Shown here: positions 9,777 to 36,434 of the stretch, piece by piece
Layout: each line of letters starts with the position of its first letter
How positions within the stretch are numbered: the stretch's first letter is position 1
DNA from: a virus
Lineage: Duplodnaviria > Caudoviricetes
Virus record (IMG/VR): IMGVR_UViG_3300011577_000001
DNA: 64,000 nucleotides
Reading direction: 5' to 3' (one strand)
Position numbers and translations under genes: made by a program
Notes under the pieces: model-generated
What the model was told of the DNA's origin: nothing
Seen by the model: only the letters and a program-made list of their open reading frames with translations
Databases searched by the model: none

Positions 9777-10893
9777 TCATGTATTCCTCAGCCAGCGCAA
9801 GATGCTCTGGAGAAAACCCTCTCGCTCGCAACCTTTCCAGTACCATTGGAACGACCGACGTCGGTGTGATAGCCACTGGCGTAAACGGTGTAACAATGCG
9901 GTTGACTGCTTCGCGAGTGATCTTTTCGCCATCTGTCCACTTGCCACTTAACGAGTGCAGGTTGAAATGTTTCTCGACCTCTTTGAAGCCGAGTTGGATA
10001 GGATCACCCTTATTACCGAGGACCCGGATGAACGTACCGATAGGCATGGTGTCCGCCAAAGCTTGGATGCGGTTCATGCACTCTTCCAGCTCGTAACCCT
10101 TGAGGTCAATGGTCTTGTACAACATCGCGTCTTCGTTCACCACGAAAGTGATCTCATGGTTTCCGTGTTCGCGATCAACCACCACGCGGTAGTGACCTTT
10201 GTCTTCCTCTTCCCCGTGACTCAGGCGTTCCAGAGAACCAGCAGCCAGGATGTTCCCGTACTGCGAGCGCTTGTGGATGTGTCCGCCAAAGACGAAGTAC
10301 CTGGTGATTCCCATGTACCTCTCGGGGATGTGGGTTGGAACCGGAACGTGGCTCGGAAGCTGGTAGTTAAACGCACCGTGCAAAATGGTGAAGTCTACCT
10401 TTTCCAAACCTTTCTCGGTCATGACCTGGACAACGTCTTTCCAAACATCGTCAGTCTCCACACGCCATTCGTCAGGTACGTAAAGAATGTTGATACCGAA
10501 CCGTTCGATGTACTCGATCGACAGGGTTTCAATCCACTTCACGTCAGCCCCGATAGACGCAATCTCGTTCTCGGAGATTACGTTAGCACTCTGCTTCCAG
10601 TCGTGGGACGGTGTCCCTTCCAGAATGCGCACCACAATGTCACGGCGCTTACACATGGAAAGGAACCAGAAGAACCAGCGACGGATCTGGTCAATCAACA
10701 CAACCTCAGAGTGCATGATCAGACGGTCGTAGAGATCGCCTGCGATGATGATCAAGTCCAGCTCACCAGTCTCTGCGTTATCCGGGAACGCTTTGTACAG
10801 CGCTTTCAGGACGTGGCTGGTGGGGGTATTGTGATGGCCTAGGTGAACATCCCCCGTTTCACCTATACGCAGCTTACGCGAGGTCGAAGTCAT
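9748..10893 (-). CDS. sbcD: SbcD/Mre11-like metallophosphoesterase nuclease (phiKZ gp65-like)
   Basis: Metallophosphoesterase motifs GDVHLG, AGDLYD, GTPSHD, LHG and GHIH. Confidence 0.88.
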   Translation of the reverse strand: MTSTSRKLRIGETGDVHLGHHNTPTSHVLKALYKAFPDNAETGELDLIIIAGDLYDRLIMHSEVVLIDQIRRWFFWFLSMCKRRDIVVRILEGTPSHDWKQSANVISENEIASIGADVKWIETLSIEYIERFGINILYVPDEWRVETDDVWKDVVQVMTEKGLEKVDFTILHGAFNYQLPSHVPVPTHIPERYMGITRYFVFGGHIHKRSQYGNILAAGSLERLSHGEEEDKGHYRVVVDREHGNHEITFVVNEDAMLYKTIDLKGYELEECMNRIQALADTMPIGTFIRVLGNKGDPIQLGFKEVEKHFNLHSLSGKWTDGEKITREAVNRIVTPFTPVAITPTSVVPMVLERLRARGFSPEHLALAEEYMNGSLLPSTG

Positions 10894-15259: not shown

Positions 15260-17278
15260 TTAGCGGTTCCAGGTCCCGGTGAAGGGAGAGCTGAACAGGC
15301 GCGAGCCTTGTTGCTGACCGCCACCGTAGTTGAAGAAGCCACCAACGTTGTTGGCAACCAGGTGGTTCAGGTCGTAGCCACCACGCTGAGTCAGGACGTT
15401 GTTATCGTCCAGGCCCTTGGCAGGACGCACGTTCAGACCGCAACGTACGATTGCTTCGGACAGCGCGTCCATGAAGGCGTTGTCGAACGACACGCGACGA
15501 GCGAAGCCCTTGACGTGGATTTCCGAGGCCAGGAGCTGGCGCAGGATTTCCTTGCGCTGAGCCAGGCGGATTTCCAGCGGGACCTGCACGTTGCGGTGGG
15601 TTTCTTCCCAGGCTTCGACCAGTTTCGGGTTGGTCTTGCCAGCCAGGTTGAGGATGGCCAGGTAGTCGATTTCACGCAGGTCACGACGATTGCCTTCGCG
15701 ATCGTAGTAGAAGCCCAGGTGGATGCGATCCTGATCGTCGTAGCAAACCGGCTTGGTCGCGTCGAACAGTTGCTGGAAGTGACCCATGGTCAGGTTGTTG
15801 GCCGCTTGCAGGATGGCCAGACGAGCGTTCTCGTCGCCGTTGGCGGCGGCGATGTAGGTCTGGTGAATCCAGGACAGCTCGCCAACCTCGGCGATGTCGA
15901 GGGTGAAGATCAGCTTCGGCGCGATCAGGGTGTTGATGAGCTGGCGCATTTCGTTGTCACCGAAGTCGGCGGAACGAGTCGGCAGTGCATCAGGCTTGGC
16001 GTTCGGGTCACCGGTCAGGTTGACTTCGTAGCCGACAGCACCCAGGTCTTTCAGATCGACGTCGGTAGCCTTGCCCTTGTTGGCGCGCCAGGTACCGGTG
16101 TACAGCGCGTTGCGGTTCAGACCGAAGGCGGTAGACAGGGTCAGCAGTTGCAGTTCCATGTTCACGGCGTCGGTCAGGGTGTCGACCGAGGTCATCACCA
16201 GACGCGGCTGGTACATCTGAGTCGCCATCATTTGCTGCTGGCCGAACATACCGAAGGCGTTCTGCTGCGGCTGGAAGCCCGCTTGTGCCGGTTGGTACAT
16301 CAGGTCAACGTACGCACCCACGCGGGTGAGCTGACGGGTTTGTTGCAGGCTGAACTGCGAGTCGGCTTGGGACTGCGCGGACATGGTGACGATGATGTCT
16401 TCACGTACCGGCATGCCAACCAGGTCTTCGCCGTGCTGACGAGTGAACTCGACACGCGCGCTCAGTTGGTCACCAGCGCCGACTTCGCCCAGGGTGAACG
16501 GCTCTTCGGTGCCGCCGAGCTGGTTGTCCATGATGGTGTAGCAGGCCTGGGTGCTGTTGTGCAGCAGGCGGTTGAAGCGGTTCTCGGTGCTGACTTCGGC
16601 TTCGGCCGGGATCACGATGCCACCGGCGTCGTGGACCTGAGCGTTCATGCCGTAGGTGTTGATGACGAACTGCTCCAGAACTTGCCAGTACGACTTGTTC
16701 AGGTAGATGTCACCCGGTACGATGTCGACTTCGACGGTGGTGCCGCCCAGGTTGACGCTGTTCGGGTCCAGCGGCGCACCGCTCGATTCGATCAGCATGC
16801 TGTAGACCGCGATGTGGTCTTGGCCCTGGAAGTTCTCGTGGTAGCAGACCAGGATGCTGGAGAAGGTCACCTTGGACTGGTTGTTGTCCAGTACCAGGAT
16901 GTTGAATTCCTTCTTCTGCTGTTCGGTCAGCACTTTGGCGGCGCGTTCTTTCAGACCGGTCTGGATGGTCTGCACGTCTTCGCCGGACATGTTACGAGGA
17001 ACCGGACGGCGGTGGTTGGCGTTGACGTCGAGGACCGAACGGCCACGGCTGCCGACGCGAGAGTTTTGCTGGTTCATCTGAGCACCTGCGTTGAAAGGTT
17101 GTTGCGGTTGAGCGTTACCGCCAGTCGGCTGTTGCTGACCACCGGCTGGTTGTTGTGCTTGCTGGGTCTGATCAGCACCCTGCGGATTGAGGCCTGCTTT
17201 CAGCATGGCTTCTGCCATTGCGCTGTTCGCAGGTTGGTTCGACTGGCTCTGGCCAGGTTGGTTACGTTTGACGGACAT
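15260..17278 (-). CDS. chmA: Chimallin, major phage nuclear shell protein (phiKZ gp54-like)
   Basis: Start moved to ATG 17278 (AAGGA SD). 672 aa with Q-rich N-tail, RRDLREIDYL and strongly biased codon usage; directly upstream of the gp55-like gene and preceded by an early promoter. Confidence 0.9.
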   Translation of the reverse strand: MSVKRNQPGQSQSNQPANSAMAEAMLKAGLNPQGADQTQQAQQPAGGQQQPTGGNAQPQQPFNAGAQMNQQNSRVGSRGRSVLDVNANHRRPVPRNMSGEDVQTIQTGLKERAAKVLTEQQKKEFNILVLDNNQSKVTFSSILVCYHENFQGQDHIAVYSMLIESSGAPLDPNSVNLGGTTVEVDIVPGDIYLNKSYWQVLEQFVINTYGMNAQVHDAGGIVIPAEAEVSTENRFNRLLHNSTQACYTIMDNQLGGTEEPFTLGEVGAGDQLSARVEFTRQHGEDLVGMPVREDIIVTMSAQSQADSQFSLQQTRQLTRVGAYVDLMYQPAQAGFQPQQNAFGMFGQQQMMATQMYQPRLVMTSVDTLTDAVNMELQLLTLSTAFGLNRNALYTGTWRANKGKATDVDLKDLGAVGYEVNLTGDPNAKPDALPTRSADFGDNEMRQLINTLIAPKLIFTLDIAEVGELSWIHQTYIAAANGDENARLAILQAANNLTMGHFQQLFDATKPVCYDDQDRIHLGFYYDREGNRRDLREIDYLAILNLAGKTNPKLVEAWEETHRNVQVPLEIRLAQRKEILRQLLASEIHVKGFARRVSFDNAFMDALSEAIVRCGLNVRPAKGLDDNNVLTQRGGYDLNHLVANNVGGFFNYGGGQQQGSRLFSSPFTGTWNR

Positions 17279-17358
17279 CTCGTGTTCCTTTTCATTGGGG
17301 TTGAGCACTACGACACACCATTTGCCTATGCTCTATTTATTTACATTGGGCATGGTGT

Positions 17359-26105: not shown

Positions 26106-26192
26106 TGGTACCCGAAGTCGGACTCGAACCGACATGGCTCAAGGCCGTCGCATTTTAAGTGCGGTGCGTCTCACCAATTTCACCATTCGGGC
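26106..26192 (-). tRNA. tRNA-Leu(TAA)
   Basis: Cloverleaf with anticodon loop CTTAAAA, long variable arm, GTTCGAGTC and encoded CCA. Confidence 0.93.
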
Positions 26193-26277
26193 AAATGGGT
26201 GCCTTCTCTACTTTGCCAGGTAAGGGTTCTTTGTTTCCACGCGCAGATCCACTCATTGACGAGAGAAGACATTGAAA

Positions 26278-26376
26278 GGGGTCCCCTGATGGATTCGAAC
26301 CACCGACCGTCGCATCCATTCTGTCCCAGGTTTGGACCAAGATGCACAACTCTAACCGACTGAGTTTAAGGAGACC
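26278..26376 (-). ncRNA. tRNA-like RNA with extended anticodon arm and no CCA
   Basis: Acceptor GTCTCCT/AGGGGAC, D arm and T arm (GGTTCGAATCC) are present. The anticodon stem GCATC/GATGC encloses about 24 nt containing a GTCC/GGAC hairpin. Confidence 0.7.
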
Positions 26377-26453
26377 ATCAACTGAATTCCCTGGGGAACC
26401 TTAATCGACTTGGAAGCCATTCAAAGTTTGATGGGAGACTCCCCAAGGGAAAG

Positions 26454-26541
26454 TGGCGGAAGGACAGGGACTCGAACCCTGGGACCTGTTACAGTCGGCG
26501 GTTTTCAAGACCGCTGCAATACGCCGCTATGCGACCCTTCC
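26454..26541 (-). tRNA. tRNA-Ser(TGA)
   Basis: Anticodon loop CTTGAAA, long variable arm, GCCA end. Confidence 0.93.
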
Positions 26542-26547
26542 GAAAAT

Positions 26548-26848
26548 CAAGCCAGGGCTATTCCCTGGAGTCACTCCCATGGCTAGGCACCATGACCGAT
26601 TAGAGCGAGGTCCTAAGCGAAACCGATCGGCACGGTTACTCGCTTACTCTTTCGAGTACGGATGTCTAGGCGTCTCGTTGTGTGAGCAACGATCCACTCG
26701 CCCGCAGGACAGGGCCACCAGCAGGGCAGGCGCTTGGTGTTCCTTGGTCAGGCTTTCGCCCGAGACAGCAGTTTCAGCATTCCTTTCGGGATATGCTTAG
26801 TCTTCGCTTTACGACGAGGACTGTAGAACGGAAAACCAGGCATGGCTC
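26548..26848 (-). ncRNA. Putative ~300 nt structured ncRNA between two tRNA-Ser genes
   Basis: Ends pair (AGCCA..GGTTTTCC with GGAATAGCC..TGGCT); three C-GAAA-G tetraloop hairpins on the minus strand. Confidence 0.65.
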
Positions 26849-26864
26849 TCTCCTTCTTAGAAAG

Positions 26865-26952
26865 TGGCAGTAGGTGAGAGATTCGAACTCTCGTGGCTGT
26901 TACACCAACACGCTTTCCAGGCGTGCCTTTTCGACCGCTCAAGCAACCTACT
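26865..26952 (-). tRNA. tRNA-Ser(GGA)
   Basis: Anticodon loop CTGGAAA, long variable arm, GCCA end. Confidence 0.92.
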
Positions 26953-26970
26953 GTGAAAGGTAAAGCAAAG

Positions 26971-27421
26971 TTCAATCAATACCCGGTGTGTGGTATCTTT
27001 TCGTTTACAGATCTGGTGGCCCAGCCAGGATTTCGGGTTGTACCTGGAATGCTACCTTGGAGGGTAGAGTTATACCTTTCGGCGTTTTTAACTATTGGGC
27101 CTTTCTTACCACACCACTGATTGAATCCCGCGAGGGAACTTCCAAACAGATAGACAAGATTCCTTTGTAACGCGTATTGTATTCGCTCTCTTTCAAACGA
27201 GTGGCCAGGGGAGCCTTCGGACCCTACTCCCACGTGGAACCCCGGTTGGTGGGGCTGCTTTAGAGCTTTTAGCGACTGGCCTTTCTACGTTACCGCTGTC
27301 TATCAAAATCACAAGCAGTAGATTTCACCGTACCGTCGGCTGTGATGTTACTTTCTACTTGCCTAGGCTTTCGCCTTGATTCCCTGCATCCAGACTCGCG
27401 TTACTGGATACTGCTTGTGAT
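26971..27421 (-). ncRNA. Three tandem closed structured domains (putative ncRNA or ncRNAs)
   Basis: Closing helices TTCAATCA/TGATTGAA (26971-27125), GATAGACA/TGTCTATC (27149-27304) and a perfect 13 bp ATCACAAGCAGTA/TACTGCTTGTGAT (27308-27421). Confidence 0.6.
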
Positions 27422-27463
27422 CTTTGTCAACCATCTTGTCGAGGACGACAACACAGTCGAACA

Positions 27464-27539
27464 TGGCACGCACCCAGGGAGTCGAACCCCGAACCTACGG
27501 ATTTGGAATCCGTTGCTCTGCCAATTGAGCTAGGCACGT
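27464..27539 (-). tRNA. tRNA-Trp(CCA)
   Basis: 76 nt cloverleaf, anticodon loop TTCCAAA, CCA end. Confidence 0.93.
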
Positions 27540-27546
27540 GTAAAAC

Positions 27547-27622
27547 TGGTAGCACCAAGTGGGCTCGAACCACCGACCTCACCCTTATCAGGGGTGCGCT
27601 CTACCAACTGAGCTATAGCGCT
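27547..27622 (-). tRNA. tRNA-Ile(GAT)
   Basis: 76 nt cloverleaf, anticodon loop CTGATAA, CCA end. Confidence 0.95.
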
Positions 27623-27629
27623 ATGAAAC

Positions 27630-28001
27630 TTAACCGCGACGGTTATAGTTGACGCGCTGGACTTCCAGCTCGACATACAATTCCATCGGGTATTGAGAAG
27701 GCAGTTCTACCGAGACACGCGCGATGGCAGTCTCAGGGTTGACGAATACCGCAAACGGAGCATTGGCGAAGGAGCCCAACACGCCTTGCATCTGGACACC
27801 ACGCTCGGTTTCGCTCTTGATCGGGCTGGTGATGTTGCAGGCAATGTCCACACCGTCAACGGTGGTGACACGCACTGCTTTCACCGACTCGATGGAGTCA
27901 GTACTGTCGAACTCTTCGGTCTGTGTAGCAATCAGACCAAACAGGTTGACTTGGCTAACCTTGAGCGGCAAACGAACGTGGTCAACAGGATACTTGTACA
28001 T
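27630..28001 (-). CDS. Beta-rich hypothetical protein, paralog of the C-terminal domain of the upstream Tad2-like fusion
   Basis: 123 aa; aligns by eye with residues ~90-211 of the upstream ORF. Confidence 0.7.
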   Translation of the reverse strand: MYKYPVDHVRLPLKVSQVNLFGLIATQTEEFDSTDSIESVKAVRVTTVDGVDIACNITSPIKSETERGVQMQGVLGSFANAPFAVFVNPETAIARVSVELPSQYPMELYVELEVQRVNYNRRG

Positions 28002-28010
28002 GACAGCCCC

Positions 28011-28646
28011 TTATTCAGAACGACGGTTGCGTTGGCCGTACTCGATGCGAAGAACCGCGAACAGCTCAACCGAATTCTCGGCAGCAGATGAACGCGTTGG
28101 CATGCAACCCCATTTCTGGGTGTCAACTTGGATGTTGACGTGTTGCTTACCGTTGAGGCGATCCGCAAAGGTCTTCAAGCGAGTCTCAGTACGGTGTCCC
28201 GGTACTTCGACGACGTTGCTCTTGACGACCAACCCATCAGCAGTCTCCAGGTGAACGACTTCCACCGAGAAGATAGCATCAGGACCCTCCAACACGGCGC
28301 CGGTTTCACCAGCCAACGTGAAGAGGTTTTGTTCAACGCCGTTCAAAGGAACGCGCACGTCAACCTTGGCAACGTAATCCTCAGCATCAAGGACTACCCA
28401 GTCGTCGGCAAGGATGTCGGACTGAGAAGCAACCCACGGGACAAAATCACCGTTGTGCGCTTTCAGACCCAGCCAAGGTCGCAGAGTCGGTGCAGGGTCC
28501 TTACGAACGTTGAGACCAACGGTGCGAGCACCCACGTCATAATGGCCAGAGCCAACCATGACGACCCACATGCCTTTACCGTTCCAGCCTTCGCGTGTGG
28601 CGCGAGAGCCATGCTTCAAAGCCGTAAGGGCTTGACCGAACTCCAT
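28011..28646 (-). CDS. tad2: Tad2/DUF2829-like cyclic-nucleotide sponge fused to an unknown C-terminal domain
   Basis: Start moved to ATG 28646 (AGGAG SD) because the longer ORF runs into tRNA-Ser. MEFGQAL...REGWNGKGMW...PWVASQSDILADDW is the DUF2829/Tad2 signature. Confidence 0.8.
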   Translation of the reverse strand: MEFGQALTALKHGSRATREGWNGKGMWVVMVGSGHYDVGARTVGLNVRKDPAPTLRPWLGLKAHNGDFVPWVASQSDILADDWVVLDAEDYVAKVDVRVPLNGVEQNLFTLAGETGAVLEGPDAIFSVEVVHLETADGLVVKSNVVEVPGHRTETRLKTFADRLNGKQHVNIQVDTQKWGCMPTRSSAAENSVELFAVLRIEYGQRNRRSE

Positions 28647-28667
28647 GTGAAGCTCCTGTTGTGAATG

Positions 28668-28753
28668 TGGCGGTGGGCGAAGGATTCGAACCTTCGGGGC
28701 CGCAACCCTCTCCCTTAGCAAGGGAGTGCGATAGACCGCTCTGCCAGCCCACC
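28668..28753 (-). tRNA. tRNA-Ser(GCT)
   Basis: Anticodon loop TTGCTAA, long variable arm, GCCA end. Confidence 0.93.
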
Positions 28754-28776
28754 CATTTGAAAAGATGAAACGAAAT

Positions 28777-28853
28777 TGGCTGGGATAGTTGGGCTCGAAC
28801 CAACGACCTGGTGATTAACAGTCACCCGCTACTACCAACTGAGCTATATCCCA
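28777..28853 (-). tRNA. tRNA-Asn(GTT)
   Basis: Anticodon loop CTGTTAA, GCCA end. Confidence 0.94.
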
Positions 28854-29356
28854 TTATAACGAATACCAAGAGCTACCCGACGAACCGTGTCTTTACCGAT
28901 TTCAAACTCCCGAGCAATTGCTCGATAGCTCATGGTACCGACCAGTTCAAGGATAGCCTTGACTGACTCTTCATCAAGCGCAGCATGTGGGCTGTCAAAC
29001 CCTTTCTTGCCTTCATACAAACCTAAGGCTTGCGCATGATCAATATTACCTTGATGCGTTACCCACTCCAAGTTATCCCACCGGTTATTTGTCTTATCCG
29101 TGTCCTTATGGTTCACGAAGGGAAGATTCAACGGGTTAGGGACAAAAGCCTTGGCCACTTGTACATGAGCCCTTAAACAGAACGACTTACCTTTCCTTCC
29201 TCCTATCTTGGAGGCGTGAGTAAGATAGCCATTATGGTTGGGCGTCAGTGCCAAATCTTGGAACGTGCGAATGCTAAACAGTGTCCCGAAATTGCCGATC
29301 ATGAAGAGATCAGGGTAGTCAGGACATTCCGTGAAGACTTCAAATTCATACGACAT
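28844..29356 (-). mobile_element. Free-standing HNH homing endonuclease in the tRNA cluster
   Basis: VNHKDTDKTNNRWDNLEWVT...N HNH motif plus C-terminal HTH; own early promoter at 29381-29410. Confidence 0.88.
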
Positions 29357-29428
29357 GTACTACTCCAGTAAGTGTTACTTCCTGTAAGTAATATACATCT
29401 GAACTATTTTAGTCTCCTAGGAAGGAGA

Positions 29429-29505
29429 TGGCGCCTCCGAGGGAACTTGAACCGTCGACCCCCGGCGTGACAGGCCGGTGCTCTAACCAACTGAGCTACG
29501 GAAGC
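29429..29505 (-). tRNA. tRNA-Asp(GTC) with a disrupted T stem (possible pseudo-tRNA)
   Basis: Anticodon loop CTGTCAC and CCA end are normal, but T stem GACGG/TCCCT has two mismatches and two G-U pairs. Confidence 0.8.
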
Positions 29506-29699
29506 GAAAACGTCCTGAGGAAAATGGACTCTGCAATCACCCAGACTGTGCCTGTAGGTGCATCGCGTGTAGGCTCAAGGTTCATGTAGACAACCATGGG
29601 CCAAGAACAATCCTGAGCGTGTCGACCGACGTGTAGCACTCGGAAGCGCAACCCGCTAGGAGAGAGGTACTCTCGATCCTTCTCGACAAACTCTAACAT
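29496..29699 (-). CDS. Small DUF1653-like protein
   Basis: 67 aa with FRVLHVGRH, MVVY and VWV...F...F; GAGGA SD. Confidence 0.6.
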   Translation of the reverse strand: MLEFVEKDREYLSPSGLRFRVLHVGRHAQDCSWPMVVYMNLEPTRDAPTGTVWVIAESIFLRTFSLP

Positions 29700-29720
29700 T
29701 GTTCATTCCTCTAATTCGGC

Positions 29721-29950
29721 TCCGGCTTGCTTCCCACCGCTTCGGTGGTTCACTGTACAACTCACCTGTAAACCAGACGACCCGCCGGAGAGGTCTTTAA
29801 CTAACTACGTCAGCACACCTAAGGTTCCGAAGAAGGTAGGTACTTGATGTAGATCCACTGGAGTACTAGCTCTCGTCGACGTTGGCACTAACGAGATTGG
29901 GTGATCCTCCCGGCGGGGACATCCGCCGAGTTAATGCACAGTGAGCCGGA
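29721..29950. ncRNA. Putative ~230 nt structured ncRNA
   Basis: Closing pairing of TCCGGCT+TCACTGT with ACAGTGAGCCGGA; internal hairpins CTACGTCA/TGATGTAG, TCTCGT/ACGAGA and CGGCGG/CCGCCG. Confidence 0.6.
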
Positions 29951-29974
29951 TTTTCGTAACGCACAAAGGCAAAC

Positions 29975-30256
29975 GACACGGCATGGCAAAGGATCGTAAG
30001 GGTGGTCTCCCCGTAGTTCTCCCACGAGGTTAAGGGACCGCTGCGGCGCTATGCTAGATGCTTTTGTCCGCTGCGACAATCCAAGACCGTTGTTTGACAC
30101 GCCTCGCCTCATTGGGTTGGAATTCCCGAGACTTATTTTCCCTGACTGATGACGCTCTCAGCATCGACCGAGCGGGTTACTCCTTTCCAAGGGAGCACCT
30201 ATCTAAGTCTTACAAGGTAAAACCACCGTATCGCCAGCAAGGGTCGTCGCGGTGTT
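29975..30256. ncRNA. Putative ~280 nt structured ncRNA
   Basis: ORF-free, with nested pairings GACAC/GTGTT, GGTGGT/ACCACC and AGACTTA/TAAGTCT. Confidence 0.45.
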
Positions 30257-30261
30257 AAAAG

Positions 30262-30348
30262 TGGTGGTCGAAGGATGGAATTGAACCTCTAGCACAAGGC
30301 GGCGCGTTTACAGCGCGCTGACAGTAGCCATCTGTCTCTACAACGACC
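30262..30348 (-). tRNA. Atypical tRNA-Tyr(GTA)-like gene
   Basis: Anticodon arm GCGCG-CTGTAAA-CGCGC and ACCA end, but the acceptor has U-U mismatches, the D stem is 5 bp and the T stem is bulged. Confidence 0.65.
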
Positions 30349-30355
30349 GTGAAAC

Positions 30356-30486
30356 TGGTGCCCCGTTACTCTATTACGAGTGTCTGTTAGACTGACCCCG
30401 TGAGAGGGGAGTTTGGGTTTGACCGGCTCTACATTCCCACCCCGAAGGGTTCACAATGCGATCTCCGATGACCTCAGACCAGGACA
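30356..30486 (-). ncRNA. CCA-terminated non-tRNA stable-RNA candidate
   Basis: Acceptor-like stem GTCCTG/CGGGGC followed by ACCA, with CCC-TTCG-GGG and other hairpins; no D loop or TTCGA T loop. Confidence 0.6.
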
Positions 30487-30499
30487 TGAAACTAGAAGA

Positions 30500-30632
30500 T
30501 GGCCCCGCTACGTGGACTCGAACCACGGACCTCCCGCTGGCACGCGCATTCAAACGTCATCACTGCCGGAAGGGCTGCTAGCGACGTAACCGCATGTCTA
30601 ACGAGTGCTCTAACCAACTGAGCTATAGCCGG
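30500..30632 (-). ncRNA. tRNA-like RNA with a ~60 nt hairpin replacing the anticodon loop
   Basis: Canonical D arm (AGCTCAGTTGGTTAGAGCA), T arm (CGTGGTTCGAGTCCACG) and GCCA end. The anticodon stem continues through CATGCG/CGCGTG and ACGTCG/TGACGT. Confidence 0.75.
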
Positions 30633-30635
30633 GAT

Positions 30636-30872
30636 GTGAGAGAAGGCCGCTACCCCGATCTACGGGCCGTGATACTCTCGGGGACTCAGGCGAAAGGGAA
30701 CCAAAAGCCTAAGAACTGCGGTATGCAAGCGCAGTCGTCTATTACCCCAGAGTCGGGTCGCAATATCATTCGATGGTGTGTGGGGTCCGTCAAGTCTCCA
30801 CGTTCCCTCTCGGTGGCGAAACCAAGAGCGTGCTGGAACTTACCATTCAAACAAATCACGTCATTCTCTCAT
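30636..30872. ncRNA. Putative ~235 nt structured RNA at the upstream end of the tRNA cluster
   Basis: Closing helix GTGAGAGAA/TTCTCTCAT; internal ACTGCG/CGCAGT, AGGC/GCCT and GGGG/CCCC stems. Confidence 0.5.
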
Positions 30873-33208: not shown

Positions 33209-34174
33209 TTACAAGACCAGGAAGTCGTTGGTGGTCTGGTCTTTCTCGGTCACGATTGCTTTGGCCGAAGCACGGCCTTCGCGACGCTCCACGAAACCTT
33301 CCACCGTACGGTTGAGGGTGTCGTAAGACTGACCCAGGAACTGGGTCGAGATCACGTAGTGCAGCTCGCTGACACCTTCGACCGGGGTCTGGAAGAAACC
33401 AGCGCAGGAGTATTCCGGCACCGGAGTTTGCAGTTGCGGTTGATCGCGGTCGGCGTACAGGCTGGCGATGGCGATCGGGTCCAGGATTTCCTTGACCTTC
33501 TCGGCGTCGCTGTAGATGTCCAGCAGGGCCAGTTGAGCTTCGACCGAAGTGGACTTGTTGAAGCGCAGCCAGTGCAGTACGTCCATGGTGTCCAGCTCGG
33601 CGTTCTGGCGAGAGGCCAGGTAGCGCAGGCAGGTGATGGCGAAGTGCAGTTGACCGTCGATGGTCGAACGGGTGGTGCCCTCGCCACTGTGGCGGTAGAA
33701 GGCAACGACCGGAACCTTGATACCGTTGGAGATCGCCGACAGCGACTTCAAGGTGTTCAGGCTGTTCTGCGCAGTGATAGTGGATTCGGCGGAACCCGCG
33801 CTGACCACGACCACGGCTTTGCCGCGCTCCAGGAGTTCGCGGACGATCAGCGGACCGATCACCGAACCCGAGCCACCCGAGGCGGAGAACACGACGATGT
33901 TGAAATCTTCTGGTGGCTGAGCCAGCAGGATTTGCTTGATGCTGTCTGCGATGGCCTGGTGGTTTTCGCGACGGACCTTACCGGAACCGTCGGTGCCTTC
34001 CAAGACGAAGATCGCTTCGGACGGGATCGAAGAATCCAGGTTGGAACGGCTGGTGTCTACGAAGGAGACCAGCGGGGTGGCGAAACCTGCGACGTCTTTC
34101 TGACCGAGGTAACGCTTGGCGATGTTGTTACCCAGACCGCCTGCGCCGTAAATACGAACTTTGCCCTGAGACAT
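33209..34174 (-). CDS. phuZ: Phage tubulin PhuZ
   Basis: GAGGLGNNI, GSGKVR, tubulin signature SGGSGSVIGP, ELDTMD and a C-terminal hydrophobic tail. Confidence 0.95.
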   Translation of the reverse strand: MSQGKVRIYGAGGLGNNIAKRYLGQKDVAGFATPLVSFVDTSRSNLDSSIPSEAIFVLEGTDGSGKVRRENHQAIADSIKQILLAQPPEDFNIVVFSASGGSGSVIGPLIVRELLERGKAVVVVSAGSAESTITAQNSLNTLKSLSAISNGIKVPVVAFYRHSGEGTTRSTIDGQLHFAITCLRYLASRQNAELDTMDVLHWLRFNKSTSVEAQLALLDIYSDAEKVKEILDPIAIASLYADRDQPQLQTPVPEYSCAGFFQTPVEGVSELHYVISTQFLGQSYDTLNRTVEGFVERREGRASAKAIVTEKDQTTNDFLVL

Positions 34175-35237: not shown

Positions 35238-36434
35238 TTACAATATTATTGGCTCTACAATCCATCGAGCCATATACGGAATTTTGGGATACTTGTCGAT
35301 CCAGCTTCTTAGTGCTGAGCGCGCCCAACCAAAGAAGCTAGCTACATCTTTCAAAGACGGATAGTAGTCTACCTGTCCGGTGTACGTATCCAAAACCTTG
35401 TAAGGTACAGCTCCCCTGGATTTGCGAATCAAGGAAGCTTGTTTCTGATCCTCGTCGTAAACGGGAAATGGGGTATCGTTATCGGGTCTCTTGAAGGAAT
35501 AACCTTTGAAAGGCAAGACGCTCCCGCCATTGATAAAAGTTCTTATTGTGTTTTCACAAACACCGGTAACCCTAACGGCTTCTTGGCCTGAGGCGAAGGT
35601 ATACTCAATTCCAGTAGGGTGATGTTTGGCGAGGATACAATCCACATATGCTTTCCTGCTGAAATACTTAACTCTAGAATCTAAAGCTTGATCAACCGTG
35701 TATGCAGGGACTTCTCGCAAATCTTTGAACCACTTAAAGGTGTAGCCCGCAACCATACTTAAATCGCATTTCTTCAAAGCGTTAAGAATGGTATTTCTAA
35801 GGACCCCTGTGAGTATCGACATGGTGCTAACATTCTCCGACACTAAACGAGTTCCCAATACGTGATCAATGGCTACTATTTTGTCCTCAGTCTTGTGAGC
35901 TGGTCTATGTTCCGACAAGTTATGGCTAAGGATAAATTTATCTTTGTACTTCGGCTTATCTGGATGTCCTAGTAGTCTCTTGATTGCTTCTGGGGTCGAC
36001 CCTAGGGCGCGAGCGGCAGCCTCCATTGAATGGAAGCTAACGACCTGTCCGGTCTCAGTATCACAGGCCGTAATTTGCAGATTGTAATTAGTCAATCCGT
36101 TTTCTAAGGCGTGCTGTACATTACCTGAACCAGTTTCCCATTCCAGATTACCAGACGCGTTGTGATACTTAACTCCGTCTTTATGGTTAACTTGGTAAAG
36201 CTTTCCATCTGACGGAGGAGGTCCGTTAAAAGCTTTACACACCAGCACATGTACCAAGCGTTTAGTGTGTCCTTCTTTTGCGGACCAAAGGTTTACTCTA
36301 CGGTAGCCATCTTCCTTTACAAAATGTTGAGATACGTCACGATAGTAACCTTTTGATTTCCAAACTCTTACATTTCCCTGGTCACTGATTTCATAGCCGG
36401 GGAAATCTTCAATGACTTTCCACTCTTCGGACAT
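35238..36434 (-). mobile_element. NUMOD4-HNH homing endonuclease with repeated C-terminal DNA-binding modules
   Basis: EWKVIEDFPGYEISDQGNVR and VNHKDG..HN...NLEW; AT-richer than flanks; own early promoter at 36460-36490. Confidence 0.88.

Follow-up and report, generated by a model that had tools for sequence, protein, structure and literature searches.

Codon supply and escape from defences that cleave tRNA are the usual explanations for the tRNA genes of phages. In the Lak megaphages, tRNA genes carry 'enigmatic introns' (Devoto et al. 2019, PMC6784885), and the note on them in that paper was the sole publication on such inserts found in our literature search. We have analysed a gene for a 133-nt tRNA-shaped RNA, located at 30500–30632 on the minus strand of a 64,000-nt stretch of phage DNA (hereafter, the window, which means this stretch at its full length). 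Like the Lak genes, it is a phage tRNA gene with an insert of tens of nucleotides at the anticodon loop that is highly conserved between phages and fits no known intron class, and, as in the operational definition of the Lak type, ARAGORN misses the gene in its default mode and calls it only when introns are allowed (PMC6784885). The Lak inserts, however, were interpreted as introns in tRNAs that are normal in other respects, and they come from a Bacteroidota megaphage whose genome is recoded (PMC6784885), whereas here U33 is lost in most copies, the insert changes more slowly than the tRNA shell, the arm as a whole appears to have been exchanged between orthologous shells and the phage is a chimallivirus.

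The species 1 and 2 RNAs of phage T4 (rnaC and rnaD) are stable non-tRNA RNAs of 119–139 nt encoded within a phage tRNA operon, and the 133-nt gene has the same kind of location. According to its annotation, its fold and a scan, rnaC combines a canonical T arm with a terminal stem and extra arms of considerable length. Both T4 RNAs lack a recognisable D arm, fall below the threshold of the tRNA model and lie at the 3′ end of their cluster. The 133-nt RNA, in contrast, is a complete tRNA save for its anticodon arm, comes first in its operon and has no sequence similarity to either of them. We conclude that it is a new variant among the phage tRNA 'introns' and the T4-type stable RNAs, a poorly understood group.

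Three further systems share parts of this design. In the scaffolds of Ponchon and Dardel, an RNA of interest is placed in the anticodon stem of a tRNA and is reportedly processed correctly and resistant to nucleases in bacteria. The 133-nt RNA is built alike, with its acceptor, D and T frame intact and a foreign structured RNA where the anticodon loop would be; unlike the engineered scaffolds, it is natural and conserved. YrlA RNAs (RF02553; partners of Ro60/Rsr) similarly combine a tRNA-like module with a long protein-binding helix that leaves at the position of the anticodon stem, but they are circularly permuted, end in the long helix and have a closed acceptor, and the window has no YrlA match. 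Group I introns of bacterial and phage tRNAs likewise interrupt bacterial-type tRNA genes within the anticodon arm. They are about 200 nt or more in length, whereas the present insert has 56 nt, no P3–P9 core and no Rfam match. The first-pass annotation had already judged it too short for a group I intron, rightly so.

Architecture and genomic setting of the 133-nt RNA gene

PHROG and Pfam matches, including chimallin and PhuZ, identify the window phage as a phiKZ-like nucleus-forming jumbo phage of the Chimalliviridae. It encodes a nuclear shell protein (15260–17308), a PhuZ-type tubulin (33209–34174), a split multisubunit RNA polymerase, a DNA polymerase and a terminase. The nearest cultured phages have only ∼45% protein identity to it, so the phage is uncultured. 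The 133-nt RNA gene forms the 5′ end of a tRNA island (26106–30632, minus strand) that contains eight ordinary tRNAs called by ARAGORN in default mode (Leu, three Ser, Trp, Ile, Asn and Asp). Two protein genes lie inside the island on the same strand. One (28011–28721) encodes a Tad2-like anti-Thoeris domain (Pfam, 82.8 bits) fused to a C-terminal part without assignment, and the other (28844–29356) has a domain match to an HNH_3 endonuclease with a helix-turn-helix. A further HNH endonuclease is encoded at 35238–36434.

Two other stretches of the island drew our attention. At 30258–30355 (minus strand), we observed a tRNA that resembles Tyr(GUA) but has a weak T stem; it has no ARAGORN call and scores 20 bits with the tRNA-Sec model. 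Over ∼94 nt, it shares 87–88% identity with stretches that lack annotation in phages of Pseudomonas, Erwinia and other hosts (KIL, phiPsa374 etc.; 48 records). As it resembles these stretches and is unlike the tRNA-Tyr of the relatives of the window phage, an exchange between unrelated phage families is suggested. The second stretch, of ∼130 nt, lies upstream of the tRNA-Asp gene (29507–29640, minus strand). Its part 29521–29600 is 92–97% identical in all relatives, and 29601–29640 is 90–95% identical in the close relatives and 80% in a distant one (L153, see below), while the adjoining DNA has only ∼50% identity. No Rfam family matched this stretch in an Rfam scan.

The first-pass annotation had placed the gene correctly at 30500–30632; its RNA runs from 30632 to 30500, so that RNA position i corresponds to window position 30633 − i. 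The Rfam tRNA model (RF00005) matches 30503–30632 over model positions 1–71 and reaches 41.2 bits, where 29 is the gathering score (E = 2.7e-6 in a search of 6.5 kb and 1.9e-7 in 471 nt), and 63 nt of the RNA occupy the seven anticodon-loop positions of the alignment. A default scan of the whole window missed the gene.

The 5′ strand of the acceptor stem, CCGGCUA (30626–30632), is preceded by an invariant C(−1) at 30633 and pairs with UAGCGGG (30504–30510) except at G3.G70; U8 and A9 follow it. The D arm GCUC-AGUUGGUUA-GAGC (30607–30623), with A14, G15, G18 and G19, shares a 21-nt identity with the D arm of the neighbouring tRNA-Asp. The anticodon stem is formed by CUCGU (30601–30605) and GCGGG (30533–30537), both strands being supported by the fold, the Rfam alignment and the consensus. 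Then come the variable loop AGGUC and the T arm CGUGG-UUCGAGU-CCACG (30511–30532), and finally the acceptor 3′ strand with the discriminator G73 and an encoded CCA (30500–30510), whose sequence CGGGGCCA is invariant in all five sequences known (the window and four homologues). All the nucleotides of the tertiary pairs that form the elbow are present (U8, A14, G15–C48, G18G19, G46, U54U55C56, A58 and C61). The body had been called a canonical tRNA, with textbook D and T arms and a GCCA end. The two arms and the GCCA end can indeed be read directly from the sequence, but the G3.G70 mismatch makes the acceptor stem less than textbook.

Within the arm, the 5′ strand of the anticodon stem is followed by UAGACAU (30594–30600), which comparison with the homologues identifies as the remnant of a Val(GAC) anticodon loop with A at position 33, and then by the 56-nt insert GCGG...GCCA (30538–30593). 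A GCGG direct repeat bounds the insert (30590–30593 and 30534–30537). In the minimum-energy fold, the anticodon stem CUCGU(U)/(A)GCGGG continues into CAUGCG/CGCGUG (6 bp; P2), then into ACGUCG/UGACGU (6 bp; P3) and ends in the hairpin GC-A-GCC/GGC-A-GU, so the earlier description of an anticodon stem prolonged through two 6-bp helices agrees with the fold. The insert supplies the 3′ strand of P2, a UUG bulge, P3, an internal loop and the apical hairpin, and the 5′ strand of P2 lies partly within the loop remnant, which is thereby drawn into the rod. The statement that a ∼60-nt rod stands in place of the anticodon loop is therefore right about a structured rod and wrong about the replacement: the insert, of 56–58 nt, comes after an intact-looking loop. 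Instead of a canonical 7-nt loop with U33 and an exposed anticodon, the RNA has 63 nt, A33 and an anticodon that is paired in the favoured fold. The folding energy itself is ordinary (z = +0.48 versus shuffles). Since it is no better than that of the shuffles, the case for the 133-nt RNA rests on the tRNA model score and on the comparative data.

A conserved motif, GGCCCGUAGAUCGGGGUAGCGGCC, which could be a leader hairpin or promoter, lies 12 nt upstream of the gene (30645–30668, minus strand), and the same string occurs upstream of the syntenic elements of other phages. In L153, L136 and the complete relative G001 it reads CCGUAG(A/G)UCGGGGUAGCGG. This string, with a small hairpin, precedes the first gene of the operon in every relative; in two of these (L136 and L128), a short hydrophobic ORF lies between the motif and the tRNA-like gene.

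Homologues, covariation and the conservation of the anticodon arm

We found relatives of the window phage in IMG/VR through a marker protein, and further ones by a PhuZ-anchored search of metagenome contigs. One of them, G001, is a complete 243.7-kb genome with terminal repeats and a marker protein 95% identical to that of the window; the marker of several other IMG/VR relatives is about 75% identical (the 75% group). The element of G001 has 84% nucleotide identity to that of the window. The PhuZ-anchored search added L132 (90%) and L135 (85%), and a 15-mer from the insert retrieved L153 (79%), a phage of the 75% group. L153 was the sole new homologue in the 15-mer scan, a 19-mer scan gave none, the remaining matches being due to chance, and the cultured phages of INPHARED contain no homologue. 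Each of the homologues heads its tRNA operon, with a tRNA-Tyr gene downstream of it.

The consensus fold of the five-sequence alignment is a cloverleaf with a rod, in which 96.2% of the cells are paired. Nine pairs change on both sides: three in the acceptor stem (5:68, 6:67 and 7:66, in L135 and L153), one in the D stem (C11–G24 to U–A in L153), two in the T stem (49:65 and 50:64) and three in the arm. Within the arm, the pair 51:76 is C–G in three sequences and U–A in the other two; G001 and L153 also have a rebuilt apical stem. P2, the central helix, is invariant, apart from a U.U mismatch in one sequence, and thus its covariation cannot speak for the rod or against it. The pairing and covariation values of the alignment were reached in none of 500 column shuffles, and in controls with slid partners the pairing fell to 34–50%. 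The covariation together with the shuffle and slide controls indicates that the tRNA-plus-rod shape is under selection, and the claim that the insert is structured rather than random is borne out by the four homologues. The complete tRNA elbow, acceptor stem and CCA covary as in a working tRNA. In the three closest relatives, the element is no better conserved than the non-coding DNA around it, and for this reason the strongest comparative signal comes from L153 and from the sister group described below.

The insert is 73–95% identical between the window and the four other phages. Between the window and L135, the arm is 95% identical, compared with 80% for the shell. Introns normally evolve faster than exons; by these comparisons, the arm is more conserved than the shell, which is the reverse of the usual rates.

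At the same operon position, four other phages carry a sister element, which is an orthologous tRNA shell with a different arm (L128:9843–9999, L129:10572–10730 and L130:7181–7338, all minus strand, and L136:13777–13933, plus strand). The sister arm is an unrelated, branched and nearly invariant stretch of 97–99 nt with a GCAA-capped hairpin. Comparing L130 with L153, we observed that the shells are 89% identical and the arms 31%, which is the chance level. Within the sister group, which belongs to the 75% group, the arms are 91–98% identical and the identity of the shells goes down to 52–75%; the shells of L128 and L136 are partly decayed, having lost U8 and the CCA. On reading the sequences, we found no splice point in the sister arm that would give a loop with U33. 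As shells that are 89% identical carry unrelated arms, these data point to the exchange of the arm as a cassette between orthologous shells.

Origin of the gene and the fate of its transcript

The loop remnants of the five sequences are CUGACAU in G001 and L135, UGGACAU in L132, and UAGACAU in the window and L153, so that GACAU is invariant. Deletion of one GCGG repeat and the intervening 52 nt gives the perfect arm CUCGU-NNGACAU-GCGGG. Because of the loop sequences of the homologues and this restored arm, we read the gene as a derivative of tRNA-Val(GAC) whose anticodon stem has been interrupted in its 3′ strand, a derivation that had escaped the first-pass annotation although the anticodon-loop sequence is still present. 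In the likely course of events, the insertion that interrupted the ancestral tRNA-Val(GAC) gene there would have left the GCGG duplication behind. ARAGORN labels the gene Gly(ACC) in the window and Gly(GCC) in L132; we set these labels aside, since the homologues keep GACAU and the junction is ambiguous.

U33 is almost universal in decoding tRNAs. Over the five sequences, position 33 is A, G, U, U and A, and U33 is therefore missing in three of the five; in L132, G33 is accompanied by an extra C opposite, which lengthens the rod. In the consensus fold, G34 and C36–U38 are paired and A35 is bulged. We also considered a free anticodon hairpin (CUCGU-loop-GCGG contiguous) with the insert as a giant variable arm. 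In constrained folds, this contiguous hairpin was 5–13 kcal/mol worse than the rod and the cloverleaf was often broken, and because of this cost the transcript should fold as a rod.

The identity elements of E. coli ValRS are A35, C36, A73 and a regular acceptor helix. All five sequences have C(−1), G73 and one internal acceptor mismatch (G3.G70 in three and U4.C69 in two), and their A35 and C36 are present but buried. As far as the sequences tell, aminoacylation by ValRS is disfavoured by the mismatch, by G73 and by the burial of the anticodon. The binding of EF-Tu or the ribosome, which the first-pass annotation had raised, is purely conjectural.

A script enumerating relaxed bulge-helix-bulge motifs (3-nt bulges on opposite strands, 4 bp apart, the criterion for a protein-spliced intron) found none at the exon-intron junctions. 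The single recurrent site that resembles one, ACGU/ACGU with CGC and UUG bulges, would restore no tRNA when cut. The domains PF01974, PF01139, PF09414 and PF09511 (EndA, RtcB and the Rnl ligases, including Rnl1 and Rnl2) are absent from the complete genome G001. These two results speak against the protein-spliced intron that the first-pass annotation had offered as an option. RNA ligases are encoded in one other contig (G005), but their occurrence does not follow that of rod-bearing tRNAs. With Rfam, we obtained no match to a group I or II intron, small ribozyme, riboswitch or YrlA at E ≤ 10, and the SNORD104 and mascRNA matches (13–15 bits) are noise. The string GUGAUGA resembles a box C, but there is no box D to go with it, and it lacks conservation, as G001 has GUGAGAA instead. 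The conserved internal loop NNUA/GAN fits, by eye, neither a K-turn (tandem sheared G.A beside a 3-nt bulge) nor the loop E consensus (GAUGGUA/GAGAGUA). We also set aside a connection with Ro60 and Y RNA, raised by GUCCGA and UUGAC strings in the sister arm, as their pairing is absent from the consensus fold. A TROVE match of 25 bits in G001 is antisense to real genes and has three stops, and the window ORFs of that region have no TROVE domain.

We slightly favour the reading that the gene makes a stable, non-decoding and unspliced tRNA-shaped RNA, in which the shell would be a handle for processing and stability and the rod the working part. It is the loop, the energetics, the acceptor, the mechanism, the evolutionary rates and the cassette results together that favour an unspliced RNA with a functional arm and the shell as its carrier. 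A decoding or spliced tRNA appears unlikely, given the loss of U33 in three of five sequences, the energy of the rod, the lack of a bulge-helix-bulge, group I or ribozyme signature, and the lack of EndA, RtcB and Rnl in G001. Processing and modification by the tRNA enzymes are established for any tRNA-shaped substrate. On these grounds, we infer that RNase P and the 3′ trimming enzymes would cut the RNA from the transcript of the tRNA operon, and that the tRNA-modifying enzymes and the L-shape would protect it. The anticodon arm would form a bulged rod of roughly 25 bp that has swallowed the former Val anticodon. This rod may be a binding module for a protein or RNA partner. It might, for instance, divert a factor that inspects the anticodon arms of tRNAs, or be a regulatory RNA on a scaffold, and the tRNA shell would be its interchangeable carrier.

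Some observations fit less well with an unspliced RNA and better with an intron-containing tRNA-Val(GAC), from which 56–58 nt would be removed by an unrecognised endonuclease, of the phage or its host, and a ligase or by a new small self-splicing RNA, leaving a 76-nt tRNA that decodes GUC and GUU. ARAGORN in intron mode calls the homologues Val(GAC) with an intron of 53–56 nt, removal at the GCGG/CGG repeat restores the anticodon arm in all five sequences and gives a flawless 76-nt cloverleaf, and two of the five keep the canonical CUGACAU loop, as in an intron-bearing tRNA. The invariance of GACAU could reflect selection on the anticodon and not on the helix. The insert pairs with the anticodon, like the introns of eukaryotic and archaeal pre-tRNAs, its high conservation would also suit a ribozyme or a mobile intron with exon co-conversion, and conserved unexplained inserts in phage tRNA genes have a published precedent (PMC6784885). 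Splicing by the host RtcB or by an unrecognised phage enzyme is conceivable. We nevertheless regard an intron as rather unlikely. Apart from the missing U33, junction motif, ribozyme match and splicing enzymes of the complete relative and a length far below that of group I introns, the acceptor mismatch and G73 occur in five of five sequences, the syntenic sister element is unable to form a canonical loop, and no relative examined has an intron-less allele.

The same features look different if the gene is a decaying tRNA-Val pseudogene, in which a neutral palindromic insertion is kept by linkage only. The GCGG duplication would then resemble a target site, and the loss of U33, the acceptor mismatch, the missing default-mode ARAGORN call and a folding energy no better than shuffles would be signs of decay. 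Against this stand the compensatory changes that the five phages show in four stems (acceptor, D, T and the arm), the invariant tertiary nucleotides and CCA, an arm better conserved than its shell, and an operon-head position kept in phages with only ∼75% protein identity. Nor is the insert a spreading, MITE-like palindromic repeat, as both the 64-kb window and the complete 243.7-kb relative have a single copy of it. Decay seems to us very improbable. A more specific version of the preferred reading, an unspliced RNA with a working arm, is a decoy for tRNA-targeting defences, whose shell and long arm would soak up a host anticodon nuclease, a different immune effector directed at tRNAs or an enzyme that modifies them, so that the real tRNAs would be spared during infection. 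It is known that the tRNAs of phages can act against systems that cleave tRNA (PARIS, Septu), the base of the anticodon arm with its bulged A35 is invariant, and the Tad2-like anti-Thoeris gene in the same tRNA island provides a suggestive context. The anticodon loop, which is the usual cleavage site, is base-paired here, though, and the gene has no genetic linkage to any defence-sensing gene. To our knowledge, no nuclease that targets tRNA-Val has been described, which also counts against a decoy, and we consider this version improbable.

Rod-bearing tRNA shells in other phages

The proposal of a family of long-anticodon-arm tRNA-like RNAs had been based on the 133-nt gene and on a second tRNA body of the window, termed mimic 1 (26280–26375, minus strand), and it holds when the syntenic elements of the sister phages, with their 98-nt arms, and the shells found in IMG/VR are included. 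The Rfam tRNA model gives mimic 1 a score of 31.5 bits, with 27 nt replacing six anticodon-loop positions, and ARAGORN in intron mode reads it as Thr(GGU) with a 17-nt insert. The tRNAs at the same place in the relatives are unrelated genes (ordinary, Ala or Ile-like).

We scanned IMG/VR for the exact D arm of the 133-nt gene with a T arm 62–90 nt downstream and obtained 80 distinct sequences. In 51 of them, at least six of the seven acceptor positions are paired and there is no internal T arm; 49 of these 51 have a T stem paired at five of five positions, and 16 have a closing anticodon stem at the canonical place. One D-arm sequence alone thus yields ∼50 distinct tRNA shells with inserts of 35–65 nt. 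By these counts, rod- or insert-bearing tRNA shells are common in uncultured phages.

A conserved, non-decoding, tRNA-shaped RNA suggests that the tRNA fold has a third use, in which it would carry a foreign RNA module and have it matured and protected by the tRNA enzymes of the host. We consider such a use because the arm is better conserved than the body and is apparently swapped between sister phages. It is possible, and we advance it as a tentative generalisation only, that nucleus-forming jumbo phages and many others use the tRNA fold as a natural and exchangeable carrier for various structured RNA cassettes in the anticodon arm of a single shell, which would be matured by the host and act as effectors against a factor of the host or of rival phages. 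The phage 'enigmatic tRNA introns' and the 50-year-old T4 species 1 and 2 RNAs would then be one undescribed class of scaffolded phage RNAs and not introns. If this is true, the unexplained phage tRNA 'introns' would have to be reinterpreted, natural templates for RNA-scaffold engineering would be available, and the 133-nt RNA would be a small defined object for finding RNA–protein interactions in chimallivirus infection. If the RNA is spliced instead, it would reveal a new route of tRNA splicing in bacteria or phages.

A few individual shells deserve mention. Just upstream of the sister element in L129 lies a further rod-type tRNA-like gene (10749–10849, minus strand). Its acceptor, CCCUGGG...GGGGCC, is as in the sister element, and a long perfect hairpin, AGAGACAC/GUGUCUCU, takes the place of the anticodon arm. 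A YrlA match of 23.6 bits in this contig spans two adjacent tRNA-like genes and was dismissed. The large IMG/VR phage contig L121 (1394–1532, minus strand; the same as L039, IMGVR_UViG_3300015263_000944) has a shell with a 64-nt insert located 5′ of a CAGACAA loop remnant (GAC, A33), and this contig encodes both Rnl1- and Rnl2-type RNA ligases. In nine other IMG/VR sequences (L004, L009, L059, L066, L081, L085, L087, L095 and L097), we observed a recurrent insert of ∼55 nt with the conserved ends TAAAA...GGGTTACTT. It splits the 5′ strand of the anticodon stem and is followed by an intact anticodon stem-loop (e.g. CTGTTAA, Asn), and on this basis these inserts look like a distinct class with fixed boundaries.
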